Positions 786 through 28,088 of a stretch of DNA of 37,116 nucleotides are shown here, in pieces. The translations under genes were made by a program, and so were the position numbers. The notes under the pieces were generated by a model that saw only the letters and a list, made by a program, of their open reading frames with translations, was not told the DNA's origin and did not search any database. Source of the stretch: Promethearchaeota archaeon (GTDB taxonomy: Archaea; Asgardarchaeota; Lokiarchaeia; Sigyniarchaeales; SOKP01); the NCBI GenBank assembly GCA_030603385.1, contig JAUVXW010000039.1, positions 1 through 37,116 on the forward strand, in the 5' to 3' direction. How positions within the stretch are numbered: the stretch's first letter is position 1; each line of letters opens with the position of its first letter.

Positions 786-938
786 TCGGTTATTTCACGA
801 ATCTAGACTTTAACATTTTTAAACATTGATTGTAGAGGAAATATCCTTAGGAATATATCTTTACTCTTGAAAATTTACAGTTTTATTTGGTTAAATTAAG
901 CTCAAATATGAAGATTAGGACCTATAACCGTTTCGCGA
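786..938 (+). repeat. A-spacer-B unit 1 (putative recombination site)
   Basis: TCGGTTATTTCACGA at 786-800, 124-bp spacer, TAACCGTTTCGCGA at 925-938. Confidence 0.85.
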
Positions 939-1127
939 ACTAATATAATATCATAGTATTTATCTAAATGTCACGTGAATTATAGGATCTATATTCAAAA
1001 AATGAAAGGAATTGCAGTTTAATTCTTGGTCATTATATGTATCAAATTAATTTATGTGTATTACTTTTAATTAATTAGAATTATATAGGAATTAAACAAA
1101 TTTATTCAAATTTATAATATAGTTATT

Positions 1128-1586
1128 ATGAGATATAAATTAAAATTATATCTGGACACATCAGTTATCTCAGCACTTTTTGATGAAAGAAATCCTGAAC
1201 GGAAATCTCTTACTGAATCATTTTTTGATGATATAGAAACATTTGAAATTTATATCTCAAATATTACTACATTGGAAATTGAAAAAACACCTGATAAAAA
1301 TCTTAAAAAATTAATGAAAGAAAGCATAACAAAATTTACAGTTCTTTCTGTTTCGGATGATGTTGAAGAATTAGCAAGAGAAATCATTCAAAAAGGAGCA
1401 ATTAATGCATCATATTCTGAAGATTCTTATCATATTGCTATAGCTATAATTAATGAAATGGATTTCCTTTTAAGTTGGAATTTTAGGCATATTGTTAGAA
1501 AAAAAACAAAGGATATTGTTAGAATGATCAGCAGTTTAAAAAATTTAAGACAAATAGAAATATTAACTCCTGCTGAATTATTATAA
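1128..1586 (+). CDS. PIN-domain (VapC-like) ribonuclease toxin
   Basis: LYLDTSV N-terminus, ED-x-x-HIA and LLSWNF-x-H motifs. Confidence 0.85.
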   Translation: MRYKLKLYLDTSVISALFDERNPERKSLTESFFDDIETFEIYISNITTLEIEKTPDKNLKKLMKESITKFTVLSVSDDVEELAREIIQKGAINASYSEDSYHIAIAIINEMDFLLSWNFRHIVRKKTKDIVRMISSLKNLRQIEILTPAELL

Positions 1587-1601
1587 TGAGGTTAAGATAT
1601 A

Positions 1602-1784
1602 ATGCTAGAAAAAGAAGAACTAGAGAAAATTAAAAAAGAAATTGAACGTGAATTTCCAAATGATTTTGCTTTGCAACAAATTCATATCGCAAGAAAGATC
1701 ATTGCTAAAGAAGCAGAAATGAAGGGTCTAAGTTATCTTGATTACATTAAATTGAGTATAAAAGATATGGAAGCAGTTCAATAA
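1602..1784 (+). CDS. small helical protein downstream of PIN gene, probable antitoxin
   Basis: 60 aa, GAGGT RBS; paralogues at 4510 (also directly after a PIN tail) and 3298. Confidence 0.6.
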   Translation: MLEKEELEKIKKEIEREFPNDFALQQIHIARKIIAKEAEMKGLSYLDYIKLSIKDMEAVQ

Positions 1785-1828
1785 AATAATTTATGTATAG
1801 TATTACGATAACCTATATTTAGTGAACT

Positions 1829-2056
1829 TTATTGGCATTGTGCTAATCTCGGTATTAATTCTTCGATATTCATCTGAACGAGATCATTAAGATTTAACTT
1901 TCTCCCTGTATAATTTAAAATCTCTACACCTACAATATTATCATTCTTGTCATAATCGATTATAATTCCTTCTGCTATTTCATCTGAATTTGAGATTTTT
2001 TCACTTGAAAATCGAATGTAGAGAGCATTTGCCATCTTATCAAAAGAGAAGTTCAT
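1829..2056 (-). CDS. DUF2283 family protein (putative antitoxin), copy 1
   Basis: FDKMANALYIRF...IIIDYD...IVGVEIL pattern. Confidence 0.8.
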   Translation of the reverse strand: MNFSFDKMANALYIRFSSEKISNSDEIAEGIIIDYDKNDNIVGVEILNYTGRKLNLNDLVQMNIEELIPRLAQCQ

Positions 2057-2135
2057 AGTTACTATAAAGGAGTATTTAATTAAATATTTATTCTATAATA
2101 ATAAGATTAAATTGAGGTTAAATTTATTTTCATTC

Positions 2136-2150
2136 TCGGTTATTTCACGA
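2136..2150 (+). repeat. A box (unpaired)
   Basis: TCGGTTATTTCACGA; similarity with the 4422-5058 duplicate stops at its last base. Confidence 0.85.
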
Positions 2151-2376
2151 TTGTATTGTAGAATTAGTTTTAAATTATTATATCTTAAATTTTAATAATA
2201 ACTCATGATACTTGTTGACTCTTGAATTAGCTGTTGTTTTCCGGAGGTTGTTTAATAACTCAATTCCTTAATATCCTTATTAAATATTATAGATATATTA
2301 TTATTTTTTGAGGATTTTTAATTACACAGTGAAATTTTAAACAGGAATAGATTATTTAAATAAAAAAAGAGGTCAT

Positions 2377-2561
2377 TCGCTTATTTCACGAATCTTATTT
2401 AATAAATTCATTCTTGGGTATTATAACCTTAATTTTGCGAATATTAATTATTTTTTTATAAATTTTAATTACCCAAAATCTCACTTCTTAAGTTGTTAAA
2501 TAGAGATTTCGGTCTAATTAAAGTTTCAGCTTTCAACTTAAATTCTATAACTGTTTCTAGA
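2377..2561 (+). repeat. A-spacer-B unit 2 (degenerate, 156-bp spacer)
   Basis: TCGCTTATTTCACGA at 2377-2391; TAACTGTTTCTAGA at 2548-2561. Confidence 0.65.
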
Positions 2562-2816
2562 AGATTTATATATATATTTTTGCATAATACATTGAGTTTT
2601 CGTTGTATTATCTGAAAATAATCAGACTCTTTATCAATTTAAATCATAGAATCTTGTATATTATTGGTAAATATTATTAATATAATATTGGCATTTTTTC
2701 AGTTTGTAATAACAAAATATAATTCTCAGAATTTCTTGAAGTAATATAGGAAATAAAATAATTTTCTCAACAAATTTTTTATTTTATATTTCAATTGGAA
2801 AAATCTGATATGAATA

Positions 2817-3023
2817 ATGAATGAAATAATATTTCTTGTCGAAGAATCTTTAGAAGGAGGCTATGAAGCAAGAGCTTTAGAAACCTCTATCCATACGGAA
2901 GCCGATAATCTAACTGAGTTAAAGGACTCAATTAGAGATGCTATAAGATGTCATTTTAATGAGAAAGAAAGACCTCGAATCATACGATTACATTTTGTAA
3001 AAGAAGAGGTTATAAATTTATGA
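2817..3023 (+). CDS. HicB-like antitoxin (short form)
   Basis: EIIFLVEESLEGGYEARAL...IHTEAD...IRDAIRCHF; ATGA overlap with hicA. Confidence 0.75.
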   Translation: MNEIIFLVEESLEGGYEARALETSIHTEADNLTELKDSIRDAIRCHFNEKERPRIIRLHFVKEEVINL

Positions 3024-3262
3024 TAATCCCGTGAAATATTAGCGGGATGAAATTATCCAAATTACTAAAAAGATTTGGATTTGAAATCACAAGGCAGACG
3101 AGAAGTCATATGAGATTAAGTACAACAATAGGAGGAGAATTTCATATTACTATTCCAAATCATAAGAGTTTGAAAATAGGTACAATTAATAATATATTAT
3201 CGGATATTGCAAAGTATCTCGAAATAGATAAGATAGAACTTATCAAGGCATTATTTGGATAA
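3020..3262 (+). pseudogene. hicA: HicA toxin with in-frame TGA at codon 5 (track ORF restarts at 3047)
   Basis: ATG ATA ATC CCG TGA AAT ATT AGC GGG ATG is in frame with the HicA body; the conserved GSH motif reads RSH. Confidence 0.7.
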
Positions 3263-3297
3263 GCAGGTATTCTATTTCATAATGAAGGCAAAAAAGA

Positions 3298-3384
3298 ATG
3301 TTGGATAAAAAAGAAATTGAAGATATTAAAAAAGAAATAGAATATGAATTTCCAAATAATCAATATATAAGAGCAATTAATTAA
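3298..3384 (+). pseudogene. truncated copy of the 1602..1784 small protein
   Basis: MLDKKEIEDIKKEIEYEFPN then diverges and stops. Confidence 0.65.
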
Positions 3385-3443
3385 ATACTTATTCTAGTAC
3401 ATTTGGATTAAACATTATTTTTTCATTTATTTGATTATAATAT

Positions 3444-3595
3444 TCGTTTATTTCACGAATCCCTAAAAAAAAGCTATGTTAATCATTTATTGTCTAATTT
3501 ATAATTAACTATTTGAACGTTTGAGAATTTAAAATTCGATTTTTTTAGGAAACAAGTGCTATATTTATCACTTAAAATTGGTAACCGTTTCACGA
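3444..3595 (+). repeat. A-spacer-B unit 3
   Basis: TCGTTTATTTCACGA at 3444-3458, 123-bp spacer, TAACCGTTTCACGA at 3582-3595. Confidence 0.85.
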
Positions 3596-3634
3596 TTTTT
3601 TTTAAGCTTATAAAAAATGAATTAGAGGTTGCTT

Positions 3635-3955
3635 TTAAGAAATAATTTCCCCATATTCTAAGGCGTCCATGATGAGAGAAGATCCGCCTTTAATTCTTTC
3701 AAATTCTTCTGGAGTATAACAGATATAATCAATATGTCTAGGAAAATCAAACTTTTTTAATAAGGATGGCATTCGTTCAATAAATGGGATTTCTTGGAAC
3801 AACTTTGACACGATTATTATGTCTAAGTCAGAATTCAATGTAGTATTCCCTTTTATTCGAGATCCGAAAATTATGATTGCTTTGGGGTTATATTCTTTAA
3901 GTATCTGTGGCAATAATGTCTTTTTAAAAAGTTTAGTTAATTTATTATCCTTCAT
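3635..3955 (-). CDS. minimal nucleotidyltransferase (MNT) antitoxin
   Basis: FGSR-x-KG...SDLDIIIV pol-beta NTase motif; overlaps the HEPN gene. Confidence 0.85.
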   Translation of the reverse strand: MKDNKLTKLFKKTLLPQILKEYNPKAIIIFGSRIKGNTTLNSDLDIIIVSKLFQEIPFIERMPSLLKKFDFPRHIDYICYTPEEFERIKGGSSLIMDALEYGEIIS

Positions 3956-4346
3956 TTTTTAATAACTCCTTATATCTATTTTCTAATTGAGCAAATATAT
4001 GTTTTGCTTTTTCTACTTTACTTTTGGCTATATTCTCAGTATAAATTTCATATGGTACTTGTTCAGTAACATCAGGATATCGAGCAATAATATAGTCTCC
4101 TGTCAAATCGATGACTTTATCCAAGATTTGATTCGATAAATTTAATCTTTTACCTAAATCCTCAATATAATGAATTTTGGGAATTTTTTTTCCTTCAAGA
4201 GCAAAAATCGATTTTAATAATTTTTCAATAGATTGATGAGAGAGAAATGCTGCAATATCATACCCTCCAATAGAGATATTTTTCTCAGCTATTTCTAAAT
4301 CATGTTTGGCTTGTTTAAACCATTTGAGAGCTATTTCTTTATTCAT
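3945..4346 (-). CDS. HEPN domain protein
   Basis: W-x-x-QA-x-x-DL, AAFLSHQSIEKLLK, PKIH and ARYPD motifs. Confidence 0.85.
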   Translation of the reverse strand: MNKEIALKWFKQAKHDLEIAEKNISIGGYDIAAFLSHQSIEKLLKSIFALEGKKIPKIHYIEDLGKRLNLSNQILDKVIDLTGDYIIARYPDVTEQVPYEIYTENIAKSKVEKAKHIFAQLENRYKELLKNEG

Positions 4347-4421
4347 ATGGAGCCTTTATACTATTAATGGAAATTTCTTCTTATATTATGAATAGCGTTT
4401 GATATTTAAATCTTTTAAGAA

Positions 4422-4493
4422 ATTGTAAGAATGATCATTACATTAAGAAATTTAAGACAAATAGAAATATTAACTCCTGCTGAATTATTATAA
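4422..4493 (+). pseudogene. 3' remnant of a PIN toxin paralogous to 1128..1586
   Basis: IVRMIITLRNLRQIEILTPAELL* versus IVRMISSLKNLRQIEILTPAELL*. Confidence 0.8.
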
Positions 4494-4509
4494 TAGAGAT
4501 AGATAAATA

Positions 4510-4671
4510 ATGTTAAATAAAGAAGAAATTGAAGAAATTAAAAAAGGAATTGAATCCGAATTTCCAAATGATTTCGCTTTGCAACAAATTCATATTGCTA
4601 GAAAGATCATTGCTAAGGAAGCAGAGAAAAAGGGTTTAAATTATCTCGACTACATTAAATTAATCACTTAA
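4510..4671 (+). CDS. second copy of the small PIN-associated protein (53 aa, slightly early stop)
   Basis: MLNKEEIEEIKKGIESEFPNDFALQQIHIARKIIAKEAEKKGLNYLDYIKLIT*; below the track length cutoff. Confidence 0.7.
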   Translation: MLNKEEIEEIKKGIESEFPNDFALQQIHIARKIIAKEAEKKGLNYLDYIKLIT

Positions 4672-4736
4672 AACATAGAAATGGTTTAATAAGCCTATTT
4701 ATGAACACAATCAAAATAATCCATGTATATTGAATT

Positions 4737-4964
4737 TTATTGGCATTCTGCTAATCTCGGTATTAATTCTTCAATATTCATCTGAACAAGATCATTAAGA
4801 TTTAACTTTCTCTCTGTATAATTTAAAATCTCTACACCTACAATATTATCATTCTTGCCATAATCGATTATAATTCCTTCTGCTATTTCATCTGAATTTG
4901 AGATTTTTTCACTTGAAAATCGAATGTAGAGAGCATTTGCCATCTTATCAAAAGAGAAGTTCAT
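4737..4964 (-). CDS. DUF2283 family protein, copy 2
   Basis: 3 aa differences from 1829..2056. Confidence 0.8.
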   Translation of the reverse strand: MNFSFDKMANALYIRFSSEKISNSDEIAEGIIIDYGKNDNIVGVEILNYTERKLNLNDLVQMNIEELIPRLAECQ

Positions 4965-5043
4965 AGTTATTATAAAGGAGTTTTTAATTATATATTTATT
5001 CTATAATTATAAGACTGAATTGAGATAAAATTTATCTTCATTC

Positions 5044-5197
5044 TCGGTTATTTCACGAAAACGTATCCTCAGTCAGTTATTTTCTGCTTTTGCTTAAAAT
5101 TTAAGCAAGATCTTAAATAGTCCAAAAATCTAATTTTTGGTTCTCTAAAGGAGAGAATCCCTTTTTGATAAGATAAAATTTGATAACCGCTTCAGGA
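5044..5197 (+). repeat. A-spacer-B unit 4 (spacer type S)
   Basis: TCGGTTATTTCACGA at 5044-5058, 125-bp spacer, TAACCGCTTCAGGA at 5184-5197. Confidence 0.85.
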
Positions 5198-5305
5198 ACA
5201 AATGTGATATTAGGGTATATATGGTGATATTTCATTTGTATTATGATTTTATATCTCTAATACCCAATCCTTTAAGGAATAGTAGTTAACCTGTGTAATT
5301 TTTTA

Positions 5306-5671
5306 TTAGGTCGAAGAAATCTCTTTTTTTCCTTCCTTTAATATGTTTTGAATTTCTGATTTTAGTTTCGGCAATCTTTTTTGAACAGTTTCCCAGACAA
5401 GATTAAGATCAACGTCGGAATAACCATGAATCAATCTATCTCTCATCCCCGCCATTTCTTTCCAAGGTATTTGTGAGTATTGATCCCTGATGTTATTAGA
5501 AATGTTTTTTGTTGCTTCCCCAATGATTTCAAACTTTCTTATCACTGCACTCATAGTTTTGTCATCTTTTTTAAAATCTTCAAAATTCATTCCTTCTACA
5601 AAGGTGTCTATGCTTTTTAATGCATTTACGATATCATTAAGATATCTTAGGTGATTTTTACTCATATACAA
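5306..5671 (-). CDS. HepT-like (DUF86) HEPN ribonuclease toxin
   Basis: EIIGEA, IPWK-x-MAGMRDRLIHGY with R-x4-H motif. Confidence 0.9.
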   Translation of the reverse strand: MYMSKNHLRYLNDIVNALKSIDTFVEGMNFEDFKKDDKTMSAVIRKFEIIGEATKNISNNIRDQYSQIPWKEMAGMRDRLIHGYSDVDLNLVWETVQKRLPKLKSEIQNILKEGKKEISST

Positions 5672-5954
5672 CCTCTTGTAGAATATTTTCCCTTAAATCC
5701 TTTTTTAAAGCGGGTTTAGAAATCACGTCGACCTTTCGCTTAAACTTTTCTTCTAGAAAAAAGATCAAACCCATGTAATCAAATAAATCCGCGCCTTTTT
5801 CGAACTCTACTAAAAAGTCGATGTCACTTGAGTCTTTTTGTATATCTTTGACGTATGAACCAAATAAACCAATTGATTTTACTTTATATTCAGACTTAAT
5901 GTCCTTTTTCATATCTTTCAGAATATTGAGAATTCGAGTCTTATCAAGCAGCAT
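5658..5954 (-). CDS. MntA-like nucleotidyltransferase antitoxin
   Basis: IGLFGSY...SSDIDFLVEF, RKVDV. Confidence 0.9.
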   Translation of the reverse strand: MLLDKTRILNILKDMKKDIKSEYKVKSIGLFGSYVKDIQKDSSDIDFLVEFEKGADLFDYMGLIFFLEEKFKRKVDVISKPALKKDLRENILQEVVYE

Positions 5955-6121
5955 CTAAACATCCTCGTGATTTAAATGAAGAAAAAGTATTTTATTAGAT
6001 AATTTTTTTGAATAATTTCATTATATTAAAAGTATTTCCACTATATTAAATCATGGGAGTGCAGAAATTTTAGTATTTAATATTAGCTACATATTCTCTA
6101 AATATGAGTTTCAGTTTTTAT

Positions 6122-6150
6122 TAAGATAAAATTTGATAAACGTTTCACGA
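6122..6150 (+). repeat. 3' end of spacer S plus B box
   Basis: TAAGATAAAATTTGA-TAAACGTTTCACGA matches 5169-5197. Confidence 0.8.
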
Positions 6151-6221
6151 AGTGTTAAATTTCATAAGATTCTAATCTTAACTCAAAATCTTGAAAGTGG
6201 CGAATATTTCTTGTAGGTGGA

Positions 6222-6833
6222 ATGGTCACAATTGATAATGCTTTTACTCCACAACTACTTGGCCAAATTTTAAATTGTAATCATACTCTCCATATAGGTA
6301 AAATTTTGAAATGGAATTTTCCTAATTCAAGTTGGTTGGTTGATGTATTCTTTGACGATATATATTTAAAAATAAACCCTATTATTAGTGGATTTTTAAA
6401 TGGAGATGCAATCTTAGGTAATTCAATTAATTCTTTGAGTTGGGATTCCACGACTAAAAATTTCAGTCTTAGCTTAGAAATACCCGAACTCAGTTATGGG
6501 GATTCAATTTCCTTAGATCTTGCAAATTTGGAATATGACATTAATTTTCAAGTTGATTGGATGTTAGGATATGAAACAGGTTGGGGGATTTCTTGGCTAT
6601 TTGGGGAGGGAGATGAATATAAATTAACTACTTGGCCTAAGGTAAATCTCGATTTAGTTTCCACTGAAGGGACAATAGGATTAAAAGCTTGGGTTGCTGG
6701 AGATACTACTTGGATTTCAGCTGATACAGTAAGAGATAGTAATCCCGTGATCTCGAGTTATAATATATTTTTCATGATTGGTGTGATTGGGATTATATCT
6801 GGAATTCTATTAAGAAAGAAATTTTACAAATAG
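6222..6833 (+). CDS. C-terminal fragment of a surface protein with Loki-CTERM-like anchor (probably 5'-truncated)
   Basis: Ends ISSY + hydrophobic helix + RKKFYK; no signal peptide; upstream frame has stops at 6192 and 6165. Confidence 0.55.
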   Translation: MVTIDNAFTPQLLGQILNCNHTLHIGKILKWNFPNSSWLVDVFFDDIYLKINPIISGFLNGDAILGNSINSLSWDSTTKNFSLSLEIPELSYGDSISLDLANLEYDINFQVDWMLGYETGWGISWLFGEGDEYKLTTWPKVNLDLVSTEGTIGLKAWVAGDTTWISADTVRDSNPVISSYNIFFMIGVIGIISGILLRKKFYK

Positions 6834-6861
6834 ACTAAAATAGGAGATTTTTGCATTGTTT

Positions 6862-6935
6862 AAAAATCTAATTTTTGAATCTCTAAAGGAGAGAATCCAT
6901 TTTTGATAAGACAAAAATTAATAACCGTTTCACGA
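6862..6935 (+). repeat. 3' half of spacer S plus B box
   Basis: AAAAATCTAATTTTTG...TCTCTAAAGGAGAGAATCC...GATAAGA...TAACCGTTTCACGA (B box 6922-6935). Confidence 0.85.
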
Positions 6936-7197
6936 TTGAACATAATATCTGAAGATACATGAGTGTAATATTCTAATAATATGAAATAATCATTTTAAAA
7001 TGCCAAGATAAAATCATTCTCAACTAAACCTATAAAGTAAAAGATATTGAGAATTTACATCATATATTTAAATTTATTTCACTTTATTAAATCATAGGAG
7101 CGTAAAATAAAAATTACTTTAAGATTAATTATTAATTGAAAAGCGATTATTAATTCTATGAAAGAGTGAGTAATATCAATTTTTTTTAAGTGAATGA

Positions 7198-7783
<586 letters not shown>

Positions 7784-7921
7784 TGTTATATTCTCATAAT
7801 AGTTTAAAAAAATATTTCTCTAAGTTAAGTGCTCCATGTAATTAATTAATAATGAAGATAATATCACTTTAGACGAATTGAAGTAAATATAAAAAATATT
7901 TTTTATCTGCTATCTTAATAT

Positions 7922-8075
7922 TCGGTTCTTTCACGAATCCCCACAAAAACTAATCTAACAATTATTTTATCCTGAATCTTAATGGTCTAAGAGTCAATTT
8001 ACTAAAAACTCAGCTCTTATTTTTCAATAAATAGACACTTTGAGTTTACCTTTTAGTTCTGTAACCGTTTCACGA
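7922..8075 (+). repeat. A-spacer-B unit 5
   Basis: TCGGTTCTTTCACGA at 7922-7936, 125-bp spacer, TAACCGTTTCACGA at 8062-8075. Confidence 0.85.
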
Positions 8076-8199
8076 ACTTTTTGTAACTATTGAAATCAAG
8101 TTTTAAGCATTTATAAATCCCTAATTTTTGATAATTTGATATTTTAAACAGATTTCCAATATGTATTTAAATAGATTTTACTATATAATATCATAGAAA

Positions 8200-8442
8200 A
8201 TGTCAGACATAATCGAAAGTAATCCGGAAATTCTAGGAGGAAAGCCTATCATTAAGGGAACCAGAATTCCCGTTGCTTTAATCTATGAACTAATTGGATT
8301 GAATTATTCAATAAGCGAAATTCTTAAAGAATATCCACATTTGGATCGTAATATTATTCTAACTCTTCTTAAGATTGGGAAGGATGCAAATGAAAACCTT
8401 ATGAATGTGGATATTGATGAGATTATAAGTAAAGAGGTTTAA
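8200..8442 (+). CDS. DUF433 antitoxin
   Basis: NPEILGGKPIIKGTRIPV...EILKEYPHL. Confidence 0.9.
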   Translation: MSDIIESNPEILGGKPIIKGTRIPVALIYELIGLNYSISEILKEYPHLDRNIILTLLKIGKDANENLMNVDIDEIISKEV

Positions 8443-8445
8443 TTT

Positions 8446-8517
8446 TTGAATTTTCTTCTCGATGAGAATGTACCTATCTCGATTAAAGATGTAATTCATG
8501 ATTTAATTTATTATTGA
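8446..8517 (+). pseudogene. truncated DUF5615 PIN-like toxin
   Basis: TTG start, NFLLDENVPISIKDVIHDL, stop a few codons later. Confidence 0.75.
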
Positions 8518-8629
8518 AAATAAATTATAGATTATTAAAGGTGCTTATCATAGTTTTAAAGAAGTTGTTCTTAATTATAGATCAGAATTAAATTAATTTA
8601 GATGCGTTTCTTATATTTAATTAATAATT

Positions 8630-8863
8630 ATGACTCAAGTGAAATTGGATAAAGCTTTAGCAGAGGATTTAATTACATCTAAATTAAGAATTTTAAAACA
8701 ATATATTGATGAGATACTAACTCGCTATAATGAATCTTCCTCTAAGGAATTCTTAGAGAAAACGCGTAATGGGACTTATAAAAATGCCGAAGATGATGCA
8801 GTAGAATTGCGCCAATTACTTTCAGAATATACTAAATTACAAGAGATATTAAATAATTTATAA
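8630..8863 (+). CDS. small helical protein, probable antitoxin of the DUF6516 gene
   Basis: 77 aa, Y-x-x-SS-x-EFLEK...G...EDD pattern; directly upstream of the DUF6516-like gene. Confidence 0.55.
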   Translation: MTQVKLDKALAEDLITSKLRILKQYIDEILTRYNESSSKEFLEKTRNGTYKNAEDDAVELRQLLSEYTKLQEILNNL

Positions 8864-8883
8864 AAATTTCCGTTGATATATAT

Positions 8884-9245
8884 ATGGATTCTAGAAGGAA
8901 TCTTGAGTTAGCTCGAGAGTCATTATAAATGATTATAATGAATATATAAGAGGTATTATCCTCGATAAAGACCGTCCGGTCTTAAAAATTGTATTTCATA
9001 GAGAAGTCTACCTTTATTTACGTTATAACGATTATGGAGAATATTCTTATAGCACTATCTTTTCTCCTAATCCTGATGATCAAATACGATTTGATAATTA
9101 TGATGATATATGGGATGTAAAAACACGTCCTCATCATTTTCACATTCGAGGAATGAAAAAAGTTATAGAGAGTCCTATGAAAGGAGAACCTGAGCACGAT
9201 ATTCCTATCCTTCTAAAATTTGTGTTAGAAAATATTAAGAAATAG
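8884..9245 (+). pseudogene. DUF6516/TumE-like toxin, frameshifted near 8914-8919
   Basis: MDSRRNLELAR, then in another frame VIINDYNEY...GEYSY...IRFDNYDDIWDVKTRPHHFH...ENIKK*; R-x-DN and PHH-x-H motifs; no start codon ahead of these motifs in the second frame. Confidence 0.75.
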
Positions 9246-9263
9246 TATTGTTTGATTTAATGT

Positions 9264-9406
9264 TCGGTTATTTCACGAAACCGTAATCCTAAGTCAATTG
9301 TTTTCTGCTTTTGCTTAAAAATTTAGCAAGATCTTAAATAATTCATAAATCTAATTTTTGAGACTCTAAAGGAGAGAATCCGTTTTTAATAAGACATAAT
9401 TTGATA
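9264..9406 (+). repeat. A box plus full spacer S; B box lost after TA
   Basis: TCGGTTATTTCACGA at 9264-9278; the spacer aligns to 5059-5185. Confidence 0.85.
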
Positions 9407-9488
9407 GTGGTTTTATATCTAAAAAAGTATAAACTTTATCTTATTTATGTCTTAAACTTCTTAGTAGGAATATTAAGAAAATCAAATG

Positions 9489-11762
9489 TTATGTTTTCTT
9501 TAGTTGAAATATCTTATTTTTTATTAATTTAAGGATTATTTCGACATCTTTAGTTTGAAAACCTTTTTTTGTTGACAATAAATTAAAAACATAGAAATAA
9601 TCGGTATTATTAGCCTTCATTATTGATACGGCTCTCGTAATCATAGATTTTTCATCCGGACTAGTCTTGACTTGGTGTTTAATTACTTTTAAGGGGGAAT
9701 TAAGAGACGTTTCTAAATATTCTTCGAGTAGTTCCTTAATACCTATAAATGGACCAAGGTCTCCATCAAATTTTGAAATTGCGCTACTGAACTTTTTCTC
9801 AATTTCATAAGATAAAATTTTGATAGAATCTAAAAAATCATGAGAAGGGTTATCTTTCATGAGAAGCAATATTCTAAAATTCTTAAATTCTGACATTAAG
9901 ATCTTTAAATTCATATAATCTAATTTAATAGTTTGAGTGTATTCTTCTGAATCAGTTAATTCAATTCCAAAACTCCGTATTGCTTGCAAGAAACCTGAGA
10001 TTAGAGAACTATCAAATTTTTTCCCGCCATAAAGATGGTCGAAAATAGTCAATCCAGATTCTTTATCTGATATAATAAAATAATCTAAATTTAACATGTC
10101 CCTGTATTTATTAAATATTCTCTGTCGATGCTCTTTACGAATATTTCTGGATCTCTTAACAAGTTTATATGAAGCAAACCCCGTAGTTGAAATAATGGCT
10201 ATTCCGACAAGTATAATCATAATCAACATTGGATCTAAAGTAAATGGAATAATTATGTCAAAGACTTGTGATTGAATTCCTGCATCTGTATTATTATTCC
10301 AATAGATTTTAATAGTATATAACCCCTCGCGTGAATTTGAGGGAATTTTGTATGAAAAAAATGTTTCTTCTGATTGGACTTCTTTCACAATAGGTTCTTC
10401 AAAACCGTAATTTAAGGGATTAATTAGATCGAAAGTAACATTTCCTTCGTTAATAGGCGAAAAAACAGAGAATTGTAATTCTTGTCTAGGTTTCCATTTT
10501 AAATCATTAAGAACCAAATCAAAATTGATATTTGGTGAATATGCAACAATTTTCCAATCTGCTCCATCTTTAATTGTAGCGTTGTGTATAACGATGTATC
10601 TTTTATCCCAATTAATAGTAGTATTTGAAGTTATATTTTCCCATTCTGTACTTAATTTTCGGTAAACAGTTAAATTGAACCAACTTTTTGGAAAGTTAAA
10701 TTGTATAGAATAATTCGGTGAATTTCTGGAAAATATAGGAAAAAGCGTCCATTCATTATCGTAGTTTTCTTTAATAATTGCAGAACTTCTCGTTGAAAAT
10801 TCATTTGTTAAATGAATAGTATAATTATAATTGAAATTTAATTCTATAGTCTGATTAATTTGGAAAGGAATATATACATTAGTACTGCCGATAACATGAG
10901 AGATATTTGCGATCTCTAAAACCCCAGTTCCCATTTTTGGTCCGTTAATTATTTTGTAAGTCTCACCATTAAATTCAGAGGTCATATTTATATCCTCAGG
11001 ATTGTACATTCTTTCAACTCTCTGATTCAATTTAAATAAAAAGCTTGTATTCACGATCCCAGTACTCCAGGAAGTTATATAAGATGACGTATATAGATGT
11101 GGAATTTGAGGATTCAAGGTGTTCTTCTGCCAATAATATTTTGCTAGATAATTTTGAGGTAAATTAGTTCCGTTCATAACTAATGAATAATTCCCAATTG
11201 GAAGTGTAATTGGATCTGATGAAAAATCTTGATAATACCAATCCAAATTGGTAGAAATATTCAAATCGATAGATCTATAGATTGTATTATTAGGACTATA
11301 ATTACCTTCATCATATCCTTGTATTTGGAATTCAATAATCTCAGTTGCTTCTACAGTTTTATATCCTTTTATAAAAACACCATATATTTCAGTAAGTTCC
11401 AAAATTTCAAGTTGCGTTCCTAGCGCAAATGTCCTAAACATAGAATTTCTATTCCATAGTGTTTCTAATCCTGTTTCTATGTCTTCAAATATGTTAATTT
11501 CACTGCTTAAGCTTATATCCGAAATATTCATTTGTATATCTGTAACGGTCCAATTTGACTCGGGTAGTTGAATACTGATTGAACTTATATTGTCTTTTGT
11601 CCCTTTTATTTCTGAGTATTCAAAAAATTTAAAACTTGGATGAATTATATGAGACTCTGTATATAATTGAGCATGAGATAGATGTACAATTTGAAACAGG
11701 CTCAATACTAAAATTGATGTTACTAACACGGATAGACCAGAAATTTTTTTAAATTTTTTCAT
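9489..11762 (-). CDS. single-pass membrane protein: signal peptide, large extracellular beta-rich region, TM helix, cytoplasmic longin/roadblock-like domain
   Basis: N-terminal hydrophobic leader; TM MLIMIILVGIAIISTTGFASY; IISDKESGLTIF...LISGFLQAIRSFGIEL resembles Asgard longin-like domains. Confidence 0.7.
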   Translation of the reverse strand: MKKFKKISGLSVLVTSILVLSLFQIVHLSHAQLYTESHIIHPSFKFFEYSEIKGTKDNISSISIQLPESNWTVTDIQMNISDISLSSEINIFEDIETGLETLWNRNSMFRTFALGTQLEILELTEIYGVFIKGYKTVEATEIIEFQIQGYDEGNYSPNNTIYRSIDLNISTNLDWYYQDFSSDPITLPIGNYSLVMNGTNLPQNYLAKYYWQKNTLNPQIPHLYTSSYITSWSTGIVNTSFLFKLNQRVERMYNPEDINMTSEFNGETYKIINGPKMGTGVLEIANISHVIGSTNVYIPFQINQTIELNFNYNYTIHLTNEFSTRSSAIIKENYDNEWTLFPIFSRNSPNYSIQFNFPKSWFNLTVYRKLSTEWENITSNTTINWDKRYIVIHNATIKDGADWKIVAYSPNINFDLVLNDLKWKPRQELQFSVFSPINEGNVTFDLINPLNYGFEEPIVKEVQSEETFFSYKIPSNSREGLYTIKIYWNNNTDAGIQSQVFDIIIPFTLDPMLIMIILVGIAIISTTGFASYKLVKRSRNIRKEHRQRIFNKYRDMLNLDYFIISDKESGLTIFDHLYGGKKFDSSLISGFLQAIRSFGIELTDSEEYTQTIKLDYMNLKILMSEFKNFRILLLMKDNPSHDFLDSIKILSYEIEKKFSSAISKFDGDLGPFIGIKELLEEYLETSLNSPLKVIKHQVKTSPDEKSMITRAVSIMKANNTDYFYVFNLLSTKKGFQTKDVEIILKLIKNKIFQLKKT

Positions 11763-11943
11763 CTCTCTACAAAAACCTATTATTCCTACCTTATTGAAAT
11801 GAATGAACTATGTATTGTCTTTTATATACTTTAAATACCTACTAAAATAGTATTAATATTAGCATAAAAATTTATGTCAAAAATGTCAAAAAAATAAATA
11901 AATCAATAATTGATTTGAGGCTCACTTAATCGAGTAATATTTT

Positions 11944-12191
11944 ATGGTAGATCCTGAAAGGATCTATAATTTGAATCTTCACTAGAGTGTCGCTAAAGCT
12001 AAAAGTAGGGATTATAAGAGTAAGTTAGCTATTGCCCCTCTGAAAATGGGAGTATTTTCATAGCAACTTTAGACTTTCACATGGGCAAATTACTTTCGAA
12101 ACTTGCGAAGAAGAAAATGCAATAAATATCCCAACACATGATTAAAGAAGGGCAAAATTTGAAAAAGATTTTAGAAAAATCTTTATCTTAA
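11944..12191 (+). pseudogene. decayed ORF of unknown family ending just before an A box
   Basis: Coding-like frames with internal stops (...FIATLDFHMGKLLSKLAKKKMQ*ISQHMIKEGQNLKKILEKSLS*). Confidence 0.25.
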
Positions 12192-12194
12192 CAC

Positions 12195-12233
12195 TCAGTT
12201 TTTTCACGGAACCATAATCATAAGCTTAATGTT
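12195..12233 (+). repeat. degenerate A box plus start of spacer S
   Basis: TCAGTTTTTTCACGG followed by AACCATAATCATAAG, compare AACCGTAATCCTAAG after the 9264 box. Confidence 0.6.
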
Positions 12234-12349: not shown

Positions 12350-12607
12350 ATGACATCGAAGATGATTTCAATTAGAGAGGAAATCTACAAAGATTTAAAG
12401 CGATTGAAGGCCCCAAACGAAAGTTTTTCTGAATTAATTGAACGCTTAATAATTGAACGAAAAAAAGATCCTTTAAAACACTTTGGAATCCTGAATGAAC
12501 TTCCTGATAATGTTCTTGATGACTTCGAGAATGCCATTATCGAGGCAAGAAGAGAAGATAAAAAAAGGGCAGTAGAAAGATTTTCTGAAAATTGGGATGA
12601 TCTCTAA
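12350..12607 (+). CDS. vapB: VapB-type antitoxin (DUF217/VAPB_antitox)
   Basis: KMISIREEIY-x-x-LKRLK-x-PNESFSELIERL; TAATG overlap with the PIN gene. Confidence 0.8.
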   Translation: MTSKMISIREEIYKDLKRLKAPNESFSELIERLIIERKKDPLKHFGILNELPDNVLDDFENAIIEARREDKKRAVERFSENWDDL

Positions 12608-13023
12608 TGATTGTGTTAGATACAAATGTTATTATTGATCTTGGGCGCGGTCGTTCAGGTGTAAAAAAAAAGTTAGAAAATTTCAAGGGAGCTGAATTTG
12701 CGATATCTGCTATAACAATCCAAGAGATTTATGTGGGATTAGGCTATATCTTGGAAAAACACGGGAAGGAATTATATGAGAAAAATAAGGAAAAAAGCCA
12801 AAATTTATTAGAAGATTGTACAATTTTAAAAATTACTAGACCTATATTAGAGCACTCAGGATTAAAAAAAGGAAAATTAAGGGCTAAAGGTGTTACTATA
12901 GAGATTCAAGATTTAATAATCGGCTCTACCGCAGAGATATTAGGTGCTGAAAAAATCATAACTAGAAACCCTAAACATTTTGAAGTTTTTAAAGTTCGAA
13001 TTGAATCTTATGAGTTGGAATAA
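12607..13023 (+). CDS. vapC: VapC PIN toxin
   Basis: IVLDTNVIID, ISAIT-x-x-E, DLIIG, TRN-x-KHF. Confidence 0.9.
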   Translation: MIVLDTNVIIDLGRGRSGVKKKLENFKGAEFAISAITIQEIYVGLGYILEKHGKELYEKNKEKSQNLLEDCTILKITRPILEHSGLKKGKLRAKGVTIEIQDLIIGSTAEILGAEKIITRNPKHFEVFKVRIESYELE

Positions 13024-13095
13024 AATTTGGGGGGAAATATATGGTTTTTGAGAAAGGTAAAGAATTTGGGTGTGAAGCATTCCACTGTTTGAAGC

Positions 13096-13224
13096 TTGAA
13101 TTTTCTTCTCGATGAGAATGTACCTACCTCGATTAAAGATGTAATTCATGATTTAGGTTTTGATGTTTTCACCTTACATGATTTCAATATGCTAGGTATT
13201 CAGAATGGTTTTTTCACTCCTTAA
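13096..13224 (+). pseudogene. truncated DUF5615 toxin (longest of three remnants)
   Basis: NFLLDENVPTSIKDVIHDLGFDVFTLHDFNMLGIQNG; near-identical DNA to 8446-8505. Confidence 0.75.
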
Positions 13225-13423
13225 CTGTTCTTTCAAATTCATCTAAAACTTCATCCGAAAGATTTTTTGCGATACCAAAATGTTTTAAGGGGTTCTTCTG
13301 TTGATTTGCGATCAACCGTTCTATTAATTCTGAAAAGCTTTCATTCGGTTCTTTTAATTTCTTCAAGTTTTTATATATATCATCTCGAATTGAAATCATT
13401 TTTGAAGTCATATTTTTCACCAT
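13214..13423 (-). CDS. orphan, C-terminally shortened VapB paralogue
   Basis: MTSKMISIRDDIYKNLKKLKEPNESFSELIERLI closely matches 12350..12607; no toxin downstream. Confidence 0.75.
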   Translation of the reverse strand: MVKNMTSKMISIRDDIYKNLKKLKEPNESFSELIERLIANQQKNPLKHFGIAKNLSDEVLDEFERTVKE

Positions 13424-22010: not shown

Positions 22011-22253
22011 ATGTCAGATATTATCGAAAGTAATCCGGAAATTCTAGGAGGAAAGCCTATCATTAAGGGAACCAGAATTCCCGTTGCTTTAATCTATGAA
22101 CTAATTGGGTTGAATTATTCAATAAACGAAATTCTTAAAGAATATCCACATTTGGATCGTGATATTATTCTAACTCTCCTTAAGATTGGGAAGGATGCAA
22201 ATGAAAACCTTATGAATGTGGATATTGATGAGATTATAAGTAAAGAGGTTTAA
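22011..22253 (+). CDS. DUF433 antitoxin, copy of 8200..8442
   Basis: 2 aa differences of 80; upstream ~90 bp also homologous. Confidence 0.9.
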   Translation: MSDIIESNPEILGGKPIIKGTRIPVALIYELIGLNYSINEILKEYPHLDRDIILTLLKIGKDANENLMNVDIDEIISKEV

Positions 22254-22256
22254 TTT

Positions 22257-22286
22257 TTGAATTTTCTTCTCGATGAGAATGTACCT
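22257..22286 (+). pseudogene. 10-codon remnant of the DUF5615 toxin
   Basis: TTGAATTTTCTTCTCGATGAGAATGTACCT identical to 8446-8475. Confidence 0.7.
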
Positions 22287-22407
22287 TCCGTTGATTGTTA
22301 TTGAAAAAGTTACTTCACCTGTTTTATTACTAATGGTATAAGGAAATTATAATTATAAACTAGAATAAAAATTATATAAGTATAAAATCTATTCATATTA
22401 TAGAAAA

Positions 22408-22689
22408 ATGGTAGAGAAAATAACAATTAAACTACCAGCTGACCTTCTTGAGTTAACTGGTCTTAGTTCTAAAAATTTGGAAGAAAAAAGTCTTCTAATA
22501 TGGATATTAGATATTTATGCAGAGGGAAAGATAACGCTTTCCAAAGCGGCTAATCTATTGAATATGAAAGTGGATAAATTTTTATCAGAATTTCATAAAC
22601 GTCATCTTAAACATATTGGCGGGCCTGAATCCGTAGAAGAAGCTCAAAAGGAGTACGATTTAGTTCAGAAATTAACAAATGACGAGTAA
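22408..22689 (+). CDS. UPF0175 family antitoxin
   Basis: YAEGKITLSKAANLL. Confidence 0.8.
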   Translation: MVEKITIKLPADLLELTGLSSKNLEEKSLLIWILDIYAEGKITLSKAANLLNMKVDKFLSEFHKRHLKHIGGPESVEEAQKEYDLVQKLTNDE

Positions 22690-22694
22690 TATGC

Positions 22695-23150
22695 ATGATT
22701 ATCCTCGATAATAGCGTATTAAGCGCATTTAGACGTCTTAAACTCCTTTCTAATTTAAATAAATTAATATCCTCTGCAATAATCTCTAAAGAAGTTTTCA
22801 ATGAATATTCAAAACGGTGGCAGAAGAAAATTCCAAATTGGATCAAAATTAAGCAACCCAGTGATGATATAATATTGGAATCAAGTCCCGTATCATTAAG
22901 TATAGTGGACCTAAGTCTTATAAGATTAGCTTTAGAACATAAAATTCCTATCGCAACAGATGATAAACCCTTACGTCAATTTGCCAAGAATTTAGGTATT
23001 TCAATTGTAGGATCTCTTGGTTTATTAAAATCACTCTATCAAAGTAAGATTATTAAAACAAGAGAAGAATATTTATCGTTTTTAGAATCTCTTCAAGAAG
23101 ATATTTTTATTTCTGACGAGCTCATGAAGTGGGCATTAGAAGAGCCTTGA
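22695..23150 (+). CDS. PIN/DUF3368-type toxin
   Basis: IILDNS, TDD-x-x-LR-x-x-A-x-x-LG...GSLGLL. Confidence 0.8.
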   Translation: MIILDNSVLSAFRRLKLLSNLNKLISSAIISKEVFNEYSKRWQKKIPNWIKIKQPSDDIILESSPVSLSIVDLSLIRLALEHKIPIATDDKPLRQFAKNLGISIVGSLGLLKSLYQSKIIKTREEYLSFLESLQEDIFISDELMKWALEEP

Positions 23151-23296
23151 TTTACTATTGGTATTAATTACAATTTAATCAAAAATAATTAGATCTATTA
23201 AAACTTTAATAGAGGTATTAAGCAATTCAGATCAACGATTTGTAAGAATTCAAAATTCTTGTTTTTATTTTAAATACTTAAATTTTTCTTAAATTA

Positions 23297-23914
23297 TCAT
23301 TCCTTAATCTTATATCCTGTTTCTTCCCATGCTTTTCTTATTACCGGATTTTTTTTAAGAAATGAATCAACTACTTCTTTTTTTACATGGTTAAAAGGGC
23401 AAGAGAAATTTAAACAATTGCCACACCTTTTTATAATTAAAAAACTAAAGAAGATGAAAATTTCTATAATTGAAATTATTAAAAAGATAAATTGACCACC
23501 CAGTATTAAAAAAATTAATGGATATCCAACAAGAATAATAAAACCAATCATTAATTGAATTTTTTCAGATGTCTTCATAGGTTCTGGGTGATATTTCCAG
23601 AGTTTAAGACTACCATAATTAGCAATACAATGTAATGTTTTCCCTTCTTCCGCATAGTAAGGACAATGACTACAAAGAATTCTGATTTCCCAAAATTCAA
23701 AGAAAATGAACCAAAAACCAACCCAACCTAATAAAAACCAACCAAAACCAGCCATTATAACGCCAATAAAAGCAGTAATGACAAAAATAATGAATAATCC
23801 TATAAAACTAAACAAATATTTTCTATGGAAATGGCATATTAGTTTGCCTTTTATAAAGCAATCATTACATTCTTCAGTATCTTTCCAGATACAAACATTG
23901 TGGAGATTTTTCAT
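23297..23914 (-). CDS. Cys-rich multi-pass membrane protein
   Basis: Four hydrophobic segments; CSHCPYY, CGNCLNFSCPFN. Confidence 0.7.
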   Translation of the reverse strand: MKNLHNVCIWKDTEECNDCFIKGKLICHFHRKYLFSFIGLFIIFVITAFIGVIMAGFGWFLLGWVGFWFIFFEFWEIRILCSHCPYYAEEGKTLHCIANYGSLKLWKYHPEPMKTSEKIQLMIGFIILVGYPLIFLILGGQFIFLIISIIEIFIFFSFLIIKRCGNCLNFSCPFNHVKKEVVDSFLKKNPVIRKAWEETGYKIKE

Positions 23915-24028
23915 TGTATTATTATTAAATTAACCTTTTAATATCATATACAAATTTCTACTAGAGTTAAATATTGTTATGAAAAAACCTGGAAGAGTAA
24001 AATATGACCCAAAGAATTATTTGTAAAC

Positions 24029-24475
24029 TTAATTTGAACTTAGATAATTCTTGCAGAATTCTTCTGATGTGCAAATTTTTATAAGGTTCTTTACTCGATT
24101 AAATCTTCCATCATTAGAGATTAAGAATGACACTTTCTCATGTAAAGAAGCTGCGACAATAATGCTATCGGGTAATCTAAGATTTGTTTCACTTCGAATT
24201 TTTGCCGATTGATCAGCTAATCTCCTATCCAAATTAACGATTATGTAATTATCTTGTGAATATAACTTCGAAATATATTCATCTTTCTCTTTAGGTTTAT
24301 TTATATTATAGTAACCTACGCATAGTTCTGCAATTGTAATATTCGAAATAACTCCTTTTAATTGTCCGTCTTCAATCGCATCTAAAATCTTAGAAGAATT
24401 TTCGCAAAATGGCTCTTCTTCTTCTTTAACATTTATAAAGATATTAGTATCAATTGTTATTTTCATTAATCCCAT
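24029..24475 (-). CDS. vapC: VapC PIN toxin
   Basis: IDTNIFI, IS-x-ITIAE, LRLPDSII, ISND. Confidence 0.9.
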   Translation of the reverse strand: MGLMKITIDTNIFINVKEEEEPFCENSSKILDAIEDGQLKGVISNITIAELCVGYYNINKPKEKDEYISKLYSQDNYIIVNLDRRLADQSAKIRSETNLRLPDSIIVAASLHEKVSFLISNDGRFNRVKNLIKICTSEEFCKNYLSSN

Positions 24476-24702
24476 TCCTCTCTTAATTTCCTCTGAAATT
24501 CAACCCCTTTAACCCCCCAACGAGTATGACTTTTTAAGATCTCTACAAGCCTTCTTTTTTCGGGTTTTTTCAGAATGATCTCATTATCTTTCAAATAAAC
24601 AATAAGCTTATCCCCTTTTAAAATGTTCAATCGCTCTCTAACTTCTTTGGGAATGGTTATTTGCCCTTTTTCACTTACAGTTATTCTTGCTACTATCTCC
24701 AT
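24466..24702 (-). CDS. AbrB/MazE/SpoVT antitoxin
   Basis: VSEKGQITIPKEVRERL-x-I-x-x-GD; LREEW C-terminus. Confidence 0.9.
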   Translation of the reverse strand: MEIVARITVSEKGQITIPKEVRERLNILKGDKLIVYLKDNEIILKKPEKRRLVEILKSHTRWGVKGVEFQRKLREEWD

Positions 24703-24899
24703 TAATCATCATTTTTTACTTTCCTATTTATAAGTAAGACTTTTCTTACTTTTAAACCTTACTGTGAATGGAAATCTATTAGTACACATTAAATCATTAA
24801 AACATGAAGTTATTTTTTTTTTTAAAAATAAAGCAGGAGAAATTATCAAGAAATAATTTAGTTCCAAGTAGATTAGATGAGAAGAAATTAAGTAATGAT

Positions 24900-26045
24900 T
24901 TATGATTTTTTTTCTAAATTTTTTTTGGTAACGCAATATACTGGTCCTTTTCTCATTACTACTAAGCAAGAATTACAACTTGTGCATTTTGCTGGTGAAA
25001 TATCACCATTTTTCCAACGATTAGGTAAATCAGGTTCATATATTAAAGGACGACACATCGAAATGAAATCTGCTTGCTTGTCATTTAGTATTTTTTCTGC
25101 AGAGAGTGGATTTTTTATACCTCCCACCAGAATCAATTTTGTTTTATTTATTAGCGGTTTTATCATTTTAGCTGTGGATAAAAAATAGTTTTCACCCTCA
25201 GATGATTTAATCATTTTGCAAGGATAAGGATTTTTATGGGCTAATTGACTTTCATAAATCCCTCCACTAGGTTCAATCGCATCATAACCAGTATCGGCAA
25301 GAATCTCTGCTATTTTTGAACTCGTGTCTAATGTAAGGCCTCCAGGTACTGAATCGTGGGTTTGGAGTTTGACTGTTATAGGGAATTTTTTTCCAAGCTC
25401 ATCTCTAGTTTGATTGAAGATTTCTACAAGGATTTTAGCCATATTTTCAATGCTTCCCCCAAATTCATCCCTACGTTTGTTTGTATAAGGTGAAACGAAA
25501 TTACTTAGAAGATACCCATGAGTTGCATGGAGTTGGACCATATCATATCCGCATTCATAAGCTCGAATAGCCGTTTCTTTAAATCTTTTAATTAATTCAT
25601 AAATCTCTTCAACACTTAATTCTTTTGGTGTTAAACCTGTCGTTTTTTCTGGAATCGGAGAAGGTGCGACAGGAGGAAATCTTGGATGCTCACCCTGCCG
25701 TCCCATATGAACAATTTGTATAGCTAACTTAACATCTGGTTGATCATGAACTATTTTAACTAATTTTTTGTGTCCTGAAATATAGGAGTCATTATCTAAT
25801 CGAAGTTGATATGGGCTTCCTGTCGCACTCGGATCTATTCCGGTAAATCCAGTGATAATTAATCCTGTTCCACCACGTGCTAATTCATCATAAAAGTCAA
25901 TTATTTTTTGACCAACATATCCATATTTTTCAGCTCTATGCTCAAAAGTAGCCGACCTGACAATTCTATTCTTAATTTCTACATTTCCAATTTTTTCCGG
26001 GCTGAATAGTGTTTTTAATTCCTTCATTATCTTTACCAATTTCAT
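24900..26045 (-). CDS. NADH:flavin oxidoreductase (old yellow enzyme family)
   Basis: KNRIVRSAT, GGTGLIITG, QLHATHGYLLS-x-F-x-SP-x-x-N-x-R-x-DEFGGS, RPLI-x-EPDLP. Confidence 0.9.
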   Translation of the reverse strand: MKLVKIMKELKTLFSPEKIGNVEIKNRIVRSATFEHRAEKYGYVGQKIIDFYDELARGGTGLIITGFTGIDPSATGSPYQLRLDNDSYISGHKKLVKIVHDQPDVKLAIQIVHMGRQGEHPRFPPVAPSPIPEKTTGLTPKELSVEEIYELIKRFKETAIRAYECGYDMVQLHATHGYLLSNFVSPYTNKRRDEFGGSIENMAKILVEIFNQTRDELGKKFPITVKLQTHDSVPGGLTLDTSSKIAEILADTGYDAIEPSGGIYESQLAHKNPYPCKMIKSSEGENYFLSTAKMIKPLINKTKLILVGGIKNPLSAEKILNDKQADFISMCRPLIYEPDLPNRWKNGDISPAKCTSCNSCLVVMRKGPVYCVTKKNLEKKS

Positions 26046-26325
26046 TCGTTTAACTATGACTTCATCCTGCCTTTATTTATAATTAACTTGGTTCGTATTT
26101 TCGAAGATTATAAAAATAAACCAAAATAAATTATATTTCTTAAAACAAAGAAATAAAACTAGGATTTTAATGCCTAAATAACATCCTCTTTTGGTATCAA
26201 TTTTTTTTATATTCTTTAAAAATTACTTGATAGCTTTGAAGTTTCTTTTTCTCTTCTTTTGATAATTTTCTCGCACCAGGTCTAACATTATAAGAAAAAG
26301 TAAATTTGATTTTTTTCATTCTAAC

Positions 26326-27840: not shown

Positions 27841-28088
27841 CACGTTTATTAGAAACCAGCAATTTAGATTTTATTAAGATCTATGTGAAAAATTCTTGGA
27901 TAAACTCACCAATTCCTTTTATTTAAATTTTATCTAAAAAAAAGGTTTTTAAATTGCTCCATTGATAAATATCAGATCTCTATTTAGAAAAACTTAATTA
28001 TATTATAAACAGATAAATATTTAGAAGATTAAAATCATTAGAATTAAATGAAATTCATAAAAACCTAATATAAAAAGTTTGTTGAAAA

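Follow-up and report, generated by a model that had tools for sequence, protein, structure and literature searches.

A candidate Xer/dif-like cassette array built from one-armed sites in a Lokiarchaeia genome

A box-delimited array of toxin-antitoxin modules

The stretch analysed here (the window) comprises 37,116 nt of a Lokiarchaeia genome (Promethearchaeota archaeon, assembly GCA_030603385.1, contig JAUVXW010000039.1), and its first 12.2 kb carries an array of small gene modules separated by two kinds of short box, A and B. A first-pass annotation had placed 8 A and 7 B boxes between genes on a single strand, and all 15 were found again at the same coordinates, on the plus strand, intergenic and on this contig alone. 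The cargo consists mostly of toxin-antitoxin (TA) modules, as also annotated before, with PIN, DUF2283, HicA, HEPN-MNT, HepT-MNT, DUF433-DUF5615, TumE and VapBC types all found, together with two open reading frames (ORFs) of 203 and 757 aa that have no family match. We propose below that the boxes are half-sites, each a core with one arm, of a dif-like recombination site. Features of the window are as follows.

786–800 (+): A half-site (core CGGTTA plus arm)
801–924 (+): fixed-length A-B linker
925–938 (+): B half-site, inverted core plus arm, 1 mismatch
1128–1784 (+): cargo, PIN-domain gene (1128–1586) and small partner ORF (1602–1784) without family match
1512–2150 (+): duplicated block, 88% identical to 4419–5058; similarity stops at the A-arm end in both copies
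1829–2056 (−): cargo, DUF2283 gene; second copy at 4737–4964
2136–2150 (+): A half-site with no linker after it
2377–2391 (+): A half-site, 1 core mismatch
2548–2561 (+): decayed B half-site, 171 bp past A2377 (matrix 17.2 bits)
2817–3262 (+): cargo, small ORF (partner by position, no family match) and HicA toxin
3444–3595 (+): A half-site 3444, linker, B half-site 3582
3635–4346 (−): cargo, HEPN and nucleotidyltransferase (MNT) pair
5044–5197 (+): A half-site 5044, linker, decayed B half-site 5184
5306–5954 (−): cargo, MNT and HepT-like ribonuclease pair
6094–6150 (+): partial linker and B half-site 6137
6222–6833 (+): cargo, 203-aa ORF without family match
6842–6935 (+): partial linker and B half-site 6922
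7204–7783 (+): cargo, DUF433 and DUF5615 (PIN-like) pair
7922–8075 (+): A half-site 7922, linker, B half-site 8062
8200–9239 (+): cargo, DUF433 with truncated DUF5615-like neighbour; 77-aa ORF with TumE-family frame (8910–9239)
9264–9418 (+): A half-site 9264, linker, fully decayed B 9405
9489–11762 (−): cargo, 757-aa protein without family match
12195–12209 (+): decayed distal A half-site (matrix 16.8 bits)
12350–13423: VapB/VapC pair (12350–13023, +); second VapB (13214–13423, −)
22011–35142: probable eroded array continuation with no sites remaining (DUF433, UPF0175-PIN pair, ParA-like, glycosyltransferase block, HerA-NurA)

Boxes A and B are half-sites of one palindrome

A and B are not two motifs, each being one 8-bp arm, TTTCACGA, joined to a 6-bp core in either orientation. 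Box A is core plus arm and box B is inverted core plus arm, and the reverse complement of B overlaps A at the core. The resulting full site, TCGTGAAA-N6-TTTCACGA, has the geometry of an Xer/dif site, and its arms are XerC-like. Junction sites are one-armed, since the opposite side of the half-sites lacks the arm consensus. The shared direct 8-bp repeat had at first been taken for the core; the repeat is real, but it is exact in only 11 of the 15 boxes (deviating at 925, 2548, 5184 and 12195) and is the binding arm, the invertible hexamer being the core. Exact arms number 11 in the window, every copy on the plus strand and inside 793–9278, whereas shuffles gave 1.0 on average and 4 at most.

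Using a weight matrix built from 206 sites of other genomes, we found that window boxes took ranks 1–13 across the whole 3.9-Mb genome and that all 15 fell within the top 18, while no position past 12.2 kb of the window exceeded 8 bits, which agrees with the earlier report that the right-hand 24 kb is free of boxes. Likewise, matches to A with at most one mismatch number seven in the 3.9-Mb genome, every one on the window's contig.

A-to-B distances in the window are 139, 171, 138, 140 and 140 bp, and the decayed eighth B at 9405 stands behind a linker close to that of 5044. The order first described, B-cargo-A-spacer-B, does not alternate strictly (A2136 is followed by A2377, and B5184 by B6137 and B6922), and B6137 and B6922 each have a partial linker in front. 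The window's half-sites lie on the plus strand only and decay towards the right, and we therefore read the window as the outer part of one array arm, whose full CGGTTA site would lie beyond the left contig end.

Arrays in related genomes diverge from a full site

Besides genomes of Promethearchaeota (Lokiarchaeia), 40 metagenome stretches contain the exact A-linker-B unit, and the exact B 13-mer was found in 41 of 135 genomes of the family (reversed control, 4); no plasmid matched an A-linker-B unit. Neighbouring A and B boxes lie 134–140 bp apart in 69 of 79 cases, a narrow peak that the query did not impose, as it permitted 124–154 bp. The linkers keep their length and not their sequence (48 groups under 80% identity), group into families by similarity, and show no folding signal (mean z −0.4, 48 units). 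Their strongest W/S (A/T versus G/C) period is 10.5 bp, a hint only, as relatedness was uncontrolled. We rejected an RNA structure in the linker, for which there was also no Rfam match; a CTX-type folded attP, as the cores alone can pair and the arms cannot; and a cassette promoter, the first gene after B pointing with the array in 53 cases and against it in 61.

In nine loci retrieved by the A-B unit alone, a reverse-complemented B shares its hexamer with an A box, which gives arm-core-arm. In all loci examined the strand of the boxes switches only at full sites and always divergently, and no convergent junction was seen. Arrays of relatives contain one full CGGTTA-core site mid-array, with the half-sites on both sides facing away, as in contig C4 of genome G109, where ~20 half-sites extend across 46 kb around a single such site. 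A linker plus B stands on the A side in 7 of 19 full sites, such linkers being missing on B sides. Sites of different type (AB or BA) make up 134 of 159 neighbouring pairs. Among arm pairs with cores other than CGGTTA, spacings of 136–141 bp were no commoner than in a reversed-pattern control. Within the G109 array there is also a near-perfect full site with core ACTACG (C4:54313, L283), across which array polarity is unchanged.

Modules move at the boxes

We compared arrays with one another and found that 16 of 55 alignment ends lie within 10 bp of a box, where the null gave a mean of 1.4 and a maximum of 6 in 1000. The internal duplication (1512–2150 and 4419–5058) stops at the A arm, and in a contig from a subsurface sample window positions 9097–9280 are joined to 3461–3592, with the joint at the A arm. 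Cassette order, compared between genomes as the first-pass annotation had suggested, is not fixed. Relative to the array, 199 cargoes are oriented with it and 195 against it, yet a single orientation is kept in 34 of 35 cargo families, the sole exception being a probable polarity-call artefact beside a full site, and no single-module inversion was seen among these families; modules are therefore reordered and not flipped. The box-bounded homology, the A-arm joint in another sample's contig and the differing order all bear out the earlier cassette-shuffling reading, and site-specific exchange of modules is very probable.

Full sites are dispersed across the chromosome

The window's genome also contains 7 perfect and 2 one-mismatch full sites, all intergenic and each with its own core, and none at spacers of 3–5 or 7–9. 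The first-pass annotation had raised the alternative of transcription-factor sites scattered through the genome upstream of housekeeping genes. The arm does recur as nine full palindromes near housekeeping genes, which fits the letter of that alternative, but their placement is not operator-like, with 14 convergent, 10 divergent and 21 tandem contexts among 45 sites and no promoter bias. Genomes of two large genera typically have 8–14 full sites (control 0–2); numbers are mostly lower in the remaining families of Lokiarchaeia, and some full sites are present in two further Asgard families. The sites occupy about ten orthologous positions, with 44 of 90 mapped flanking genes adjoining a site of the window's genome (background 0.5%), and are spaced roughly 150–400 kb apart on long contigs, the positions being mostly stable and the cores drifting slowly. 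No clear relation to cdc6 genes was seen in single-contig genomes. We also rejected the dispersed sites as insertion hotspots, as the first-flank orthologue fraction (0.57 versus 0.63–0.64) does not fall.

The cores have 52% GC, almost never begin with A and recur between species. They are distinct within nearly every genome checked (one repeat in G113), and a single one of 349 within-genome core pairs differs by at most one base, where ~6 would be expected. For core CTGTTC all four flank combinations are present, in different genomes, and on contig C25 of the window's genome there is a split-site footprint, in which left arm plus GGTCTG and AGTCTG plus right arm surround an insert with a new full site.

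The C25 insert (L105:4880–5560, about 28.27–28.95 kb) is ~680 bp long, contains an endonuclease VII (PF02945) gene and a full site with core TCCACC, and may be a mini-element that replaces site cores; the same gene adjoins a TCCACC site in genomes G007 and G012 too. An apparent second core-replacement intermediate lies on contig C21 of G003 (L197), where a left arm with the old core and a short new-core duplication are followed by a new-core full site 41 bp away.

XerA is the candidate enzyme

Symmetric arms flanking a 6-bp asymmetric core are the pattern of tyrosine recombinases (PMC2958812), and the arm consensus from 143 sites, WNWTCGTGAAA, equals the Acinetobacter XerC arm except at two inner positions. 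No recombinase gene was found beside or within any array locus examined, in agreement with the earlier proposal that the recombinase acts from outside the window. Among the array genomes checked, XerA is the only tyrosine recombinase in common, with G100 (88% complete) giving no XerA match, and in G113, which is 100% complete and has 14 full sites, it is the sole PF00589 match. The XerA of the window's genome passes NF040815, has intact catalytic residues and is encoded on another contig. Its binding helix has an XRX motif, to which we give little weight as the source paper is inconsistent on XRX specificity. Resolvases were absent from four of five genomes tested (one in G121) and IS110 from all of them; HUH transposases were not searched. 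Judged from these sequences, XerA acting in trans is probably the enzyme.

The xerA gene, at L066:1147–2070 on the plus strand, lies directly upstream of an orc1/cdc6 gene in the window's genome (L066:1147–3397). Two ~200-aa tyrosine recombinases, 96% identical, are encoded on contigs C50 and C41 of the same genome (L067, L068).

Proposed mechanism and alternatives

In our proposal, host XerA would recognise in trans a dif-like site, WNWTCGTGAAA-N6-TTTCACGAWNW, of which the boxes are one-armed forms. Like-oriented half-sites (A with A, or B with B) would recombine to release a circle carrying a linker, cargo, one A and one B, and the 6-bp core of this circle would then recombine with the full site, by its A on one side or its B on the other. 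Recombination through A would add linker-B-cargo on one side, and recombination through B would add cargo-A-linker on the other; each insertion would rebuild the full site and shift older modules outward, where their sites decay. This scheme accounts for arrays that diverge, for cargo that keeps its orientation and for sites that decay distally. Directionality could be controlled by the linker, phased and ~124 bp long, together with the crippled state of the second arm, in the way that accessory DNA acts at cer/psi (for cer, PMC5357621). There is a precedent for a one-armed partner in TLC-phi attP, which needs the activator XafT (PMC9226527), and here the phased linker might take the activator's role. 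TA cargo would oppose loss of modules, and the nine other full sites of the window's genome are most likely parallel XerA sites, whose different cores would stop them recombining with one another.

We estimate a probability of about 0.65 that module circles enter at the full site through XerA, which regenerates the site in doing so. Several points weigh against this. The assignment to XerA is drawn from elimination and site shape, and the full sites, with inner bases AAA/TTT, do not contain TAA-N6-8-TTA, which is better conserved in known archaeal dif sites than any other feature (PMC11840125); known dif sites are moreover single-copy (PMC8371274), and there are ~10 here. Excision between two half-sites has two of the usual four arms only, and no XafT-like activator gene was identified among the annotated cargo of the window. 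Several full sites have cargo and not a linker next on the A side, something a simple circle model does not account for, and the arrays on G095:C34 and G121:C5 abut C47-type genes without a nearby full site. The dispersed sites are mild breakpoints only (broken synteny 26% versus 12%), and the genes in first flanking position are not enriched in variable ones. The assembly of the window's genome lacks the full CGGTTA site. No excised circle was seen, but the sequencing-run data consist of contigs, which are unable to show circles. How new cargo first gains its ends is left unexplained by the circle model.

An unlikely alternative, though the strongest, keeps the same module exchange and assigns it to another enzyme, either a tyrosine recombinase, mobile or divergent, that is supplied in trans or one that PF00589 fails to detect, with XerA using an unrecognised dif elsewhere. 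The missing archaeal TAA/TTA hallmark, the 1–4 further tyrosine recombinases of array genomes and the patchy distribution of the arrays would all fit. However, the best such candidate, a ~430-aa family, does not track the arrays and was rejected, being present in 11 of 135 genomes and in none of 42 in the array-bearing genus g28, with no close match in the window's genome. Furthermore, G113 combines its 14 full sites with XerA alone, no array locus holds a recombinase, and the window's genome offers two weak canonical dif candidates only.

Less likely still is that the palindrome is mainly a non-catalytic binding site, either for XerA in the manner of XerD unloading SMC at Bacillus XDS or for a nucleoid protein or regulator, with the half-sites as anchors that ride with modules shuffled by homologous recombination in linkers and TA paralogues. 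The ~10 dispersed copies per genome, at mostly stable positions and with slowly drifting cores, speak for this reading, the XDS case (as cited in PMC9226527) is a precedent, and the linker families and a duplicated window block that starts inside a gene suit homologous recombination. It nonetheless leaves unexplained the use of one core in two orientations across arrays with polarity flipping only at the full site, the homology that stops at boxes, the split-site footprint, and GC-rich cores that are conserved between species despite diverged flanks. Non-catalytic binding may be a second role of the dispersed sites.

A divergent integron (a cluster of attC sites lacking an integrase, CALIN) with A-linker-B as an attC-like single-strand hairpin, or a miniature inverted-repeat transposable element (MITE) inserted repeatedly between TA genes, is largely refuted and very improbable: the GTTA and TAAC tetramers, TA-rich cargo, ~150-bp repeat unit and enrichment of integrons in Asgard archaea (PMC9668308) are matched against a tetramer order that is wrong for attC (R'' RYYYAAC ... 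R' GTTRRRY, reversed in A-linker-B), linkers that do not fold, a sole attC-like pair with no relation to the boxes, cargo split 50:50 in orientation, no IntI (XerA scored 96 on TIGR02249, cut-off 265; the other four recombinases of the window's genome were not scored), and unit ends that are not terminal inverted repeats, the linker profile finding no copy outside the window's contig. The first-pass annotation had itself set the site apart from attC, which the reversed order and the lack of a fold or Rfam match confirm; its integron-like label holds for the cassette logic, but the parts are Xer/dif-like instead.

Comparison with known systems

The closest known systems are the dif modules of Acinetobacter and the integrative mobile elements exploiting Xer (IMEX) of the TLC-phi type. 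Acinetobacter dif modules, on plasmids (pdif) and in chromosomal islands (PMC13141974, PMC12907356), share with the Lokiarchaeia arrays 11-6-11 Xer-type sites of alternating core orientation, two alternating module types, exchange that needs matching 6-bp spacers, an XerC-like arm, a cargo rich in TA genes, extra chromosomal sites and the absence of a recombinase gene from the array itself. They have complete two-armed C/D junctions, however, whereas the junctions here are one-armed, a single core serves the entire array and there is one candidate recombinase. Of the two module types, one is here a linker that carries no gene and has a fixed length. The array is also polar, with its half-sites diverging from one full site, and the inversions known for pdif modules were not seen for single modules.

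TLC-phi-type IMEX (PMC9226527, PMC5357621) likewise have an attP in which one arm is good, the other is degenerate and the core matches; it recombines with a full dif, which is regenerated and at which elements accumulate in tandem. For the Lokiarchaeia arrays this is read from sequence layout. Unlike these elements, the arrays are in an archaeal host, no phage or replicon and, in the window's cargo, no XafT-like activator was found, and two oppositely cored half-sites per unit would permit growth on two sides. Archaeal XerA/dif systems (PMC2958812, PMC8371274, PMC11840125) have the same symmetric arms, 6-bp spacer, intergenic position and lack of linkage to xerA, but the inner arm here is GAAA and not ATAA, and ~10 differently cored copies replace the single one. 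Integrons and CALINs, including archaeal ones (PMC9668308), resemble the arrays in their one insertion point, ordered array, distal decay and TA cassettes, and differ in having IntI or attC hairpins, co-oriented cargo and growth on one side. XerD-XDS sites of Bacillus and Staphylococcus, so far as they are cited in PMC9226527, are also several dif-like Xer-binding loci besides dif with variable centres, whereas the Lokiarchaeia full sites have both arms complete and at least one core type shows strand-exchange footprints.

We found no description of this motif or of Asgard Xer/dif in the literature, most subscription journals being outside the search. Tentatively, and with the odds somewhat against it, a single XerA would, in Lokiarchaeia of this family, serve about ten dif-like sites around the chromosome made mutually orthogonal by their cores, of which CGGTTA has become an integron-like platform for two-way capture through one-armed sites and a fixed-length accessory linker. 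If this is true, it would represent an Asgard gene-capture platform invisible to integron finders and made from housekeeping dimer-resolution machinery, would provide a first candidate XerA target for Lokiarchaeia, and would break the one-dif-per-chromosome rule, bearing on the resolution and organisation of chromosomes with several cdc6 genes. The symmetric site, for which nature offers many orthogonal cores, and its one-armed variant, which is biased in direction, may also be of use as a recombinase tool.

Extent of the island and additional observations

In other genomes, the genes found at 22–35 kb of the window occur as cargo between boxes, with the same polarity, and the island therefore probably reaches this region, its sites having eroded. 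The HerA-NurA pair (32255–35142), possibly a defence module, also occurs as cargo between boxes in the G018 and G095 arrays, and the region 28089–32252, a ParA-like ATPase block and a SPASM/glycosyltransferase block, is boxed in G109, G097 and G065. DUF433 genes and DUF5615-like fragments recur at 8200–8520, 13090–13220 and 22011–22253, which suggests that one TA module was duplicated in part and has decayed. The 757-aa protein (9489–11762, minus strand) has an N-terminal hydrophobic segment and no match in Pfam, NCBIfam or PADLOC.

The same palindrome as in the full sites, extended to ~12-bp arms and with variable spacers, is present in ~13 low-GC phage contigs (L302–L320), mostly near terminase-like genes; no recombinase was found in the retrieved DNA of these viral contigs, and the context differs from that of the arrays. 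Finally, an array is also present in a metagenome-assembled genome labelled Patescibacteria (L061, JANBVM010000001.1), where the contig has 26% GC and shares cargo with an array from Lokiarchaeia, and where the bin contains another full site whose core also occurs in the window's genome; the label or bin is therefore likely wrong.

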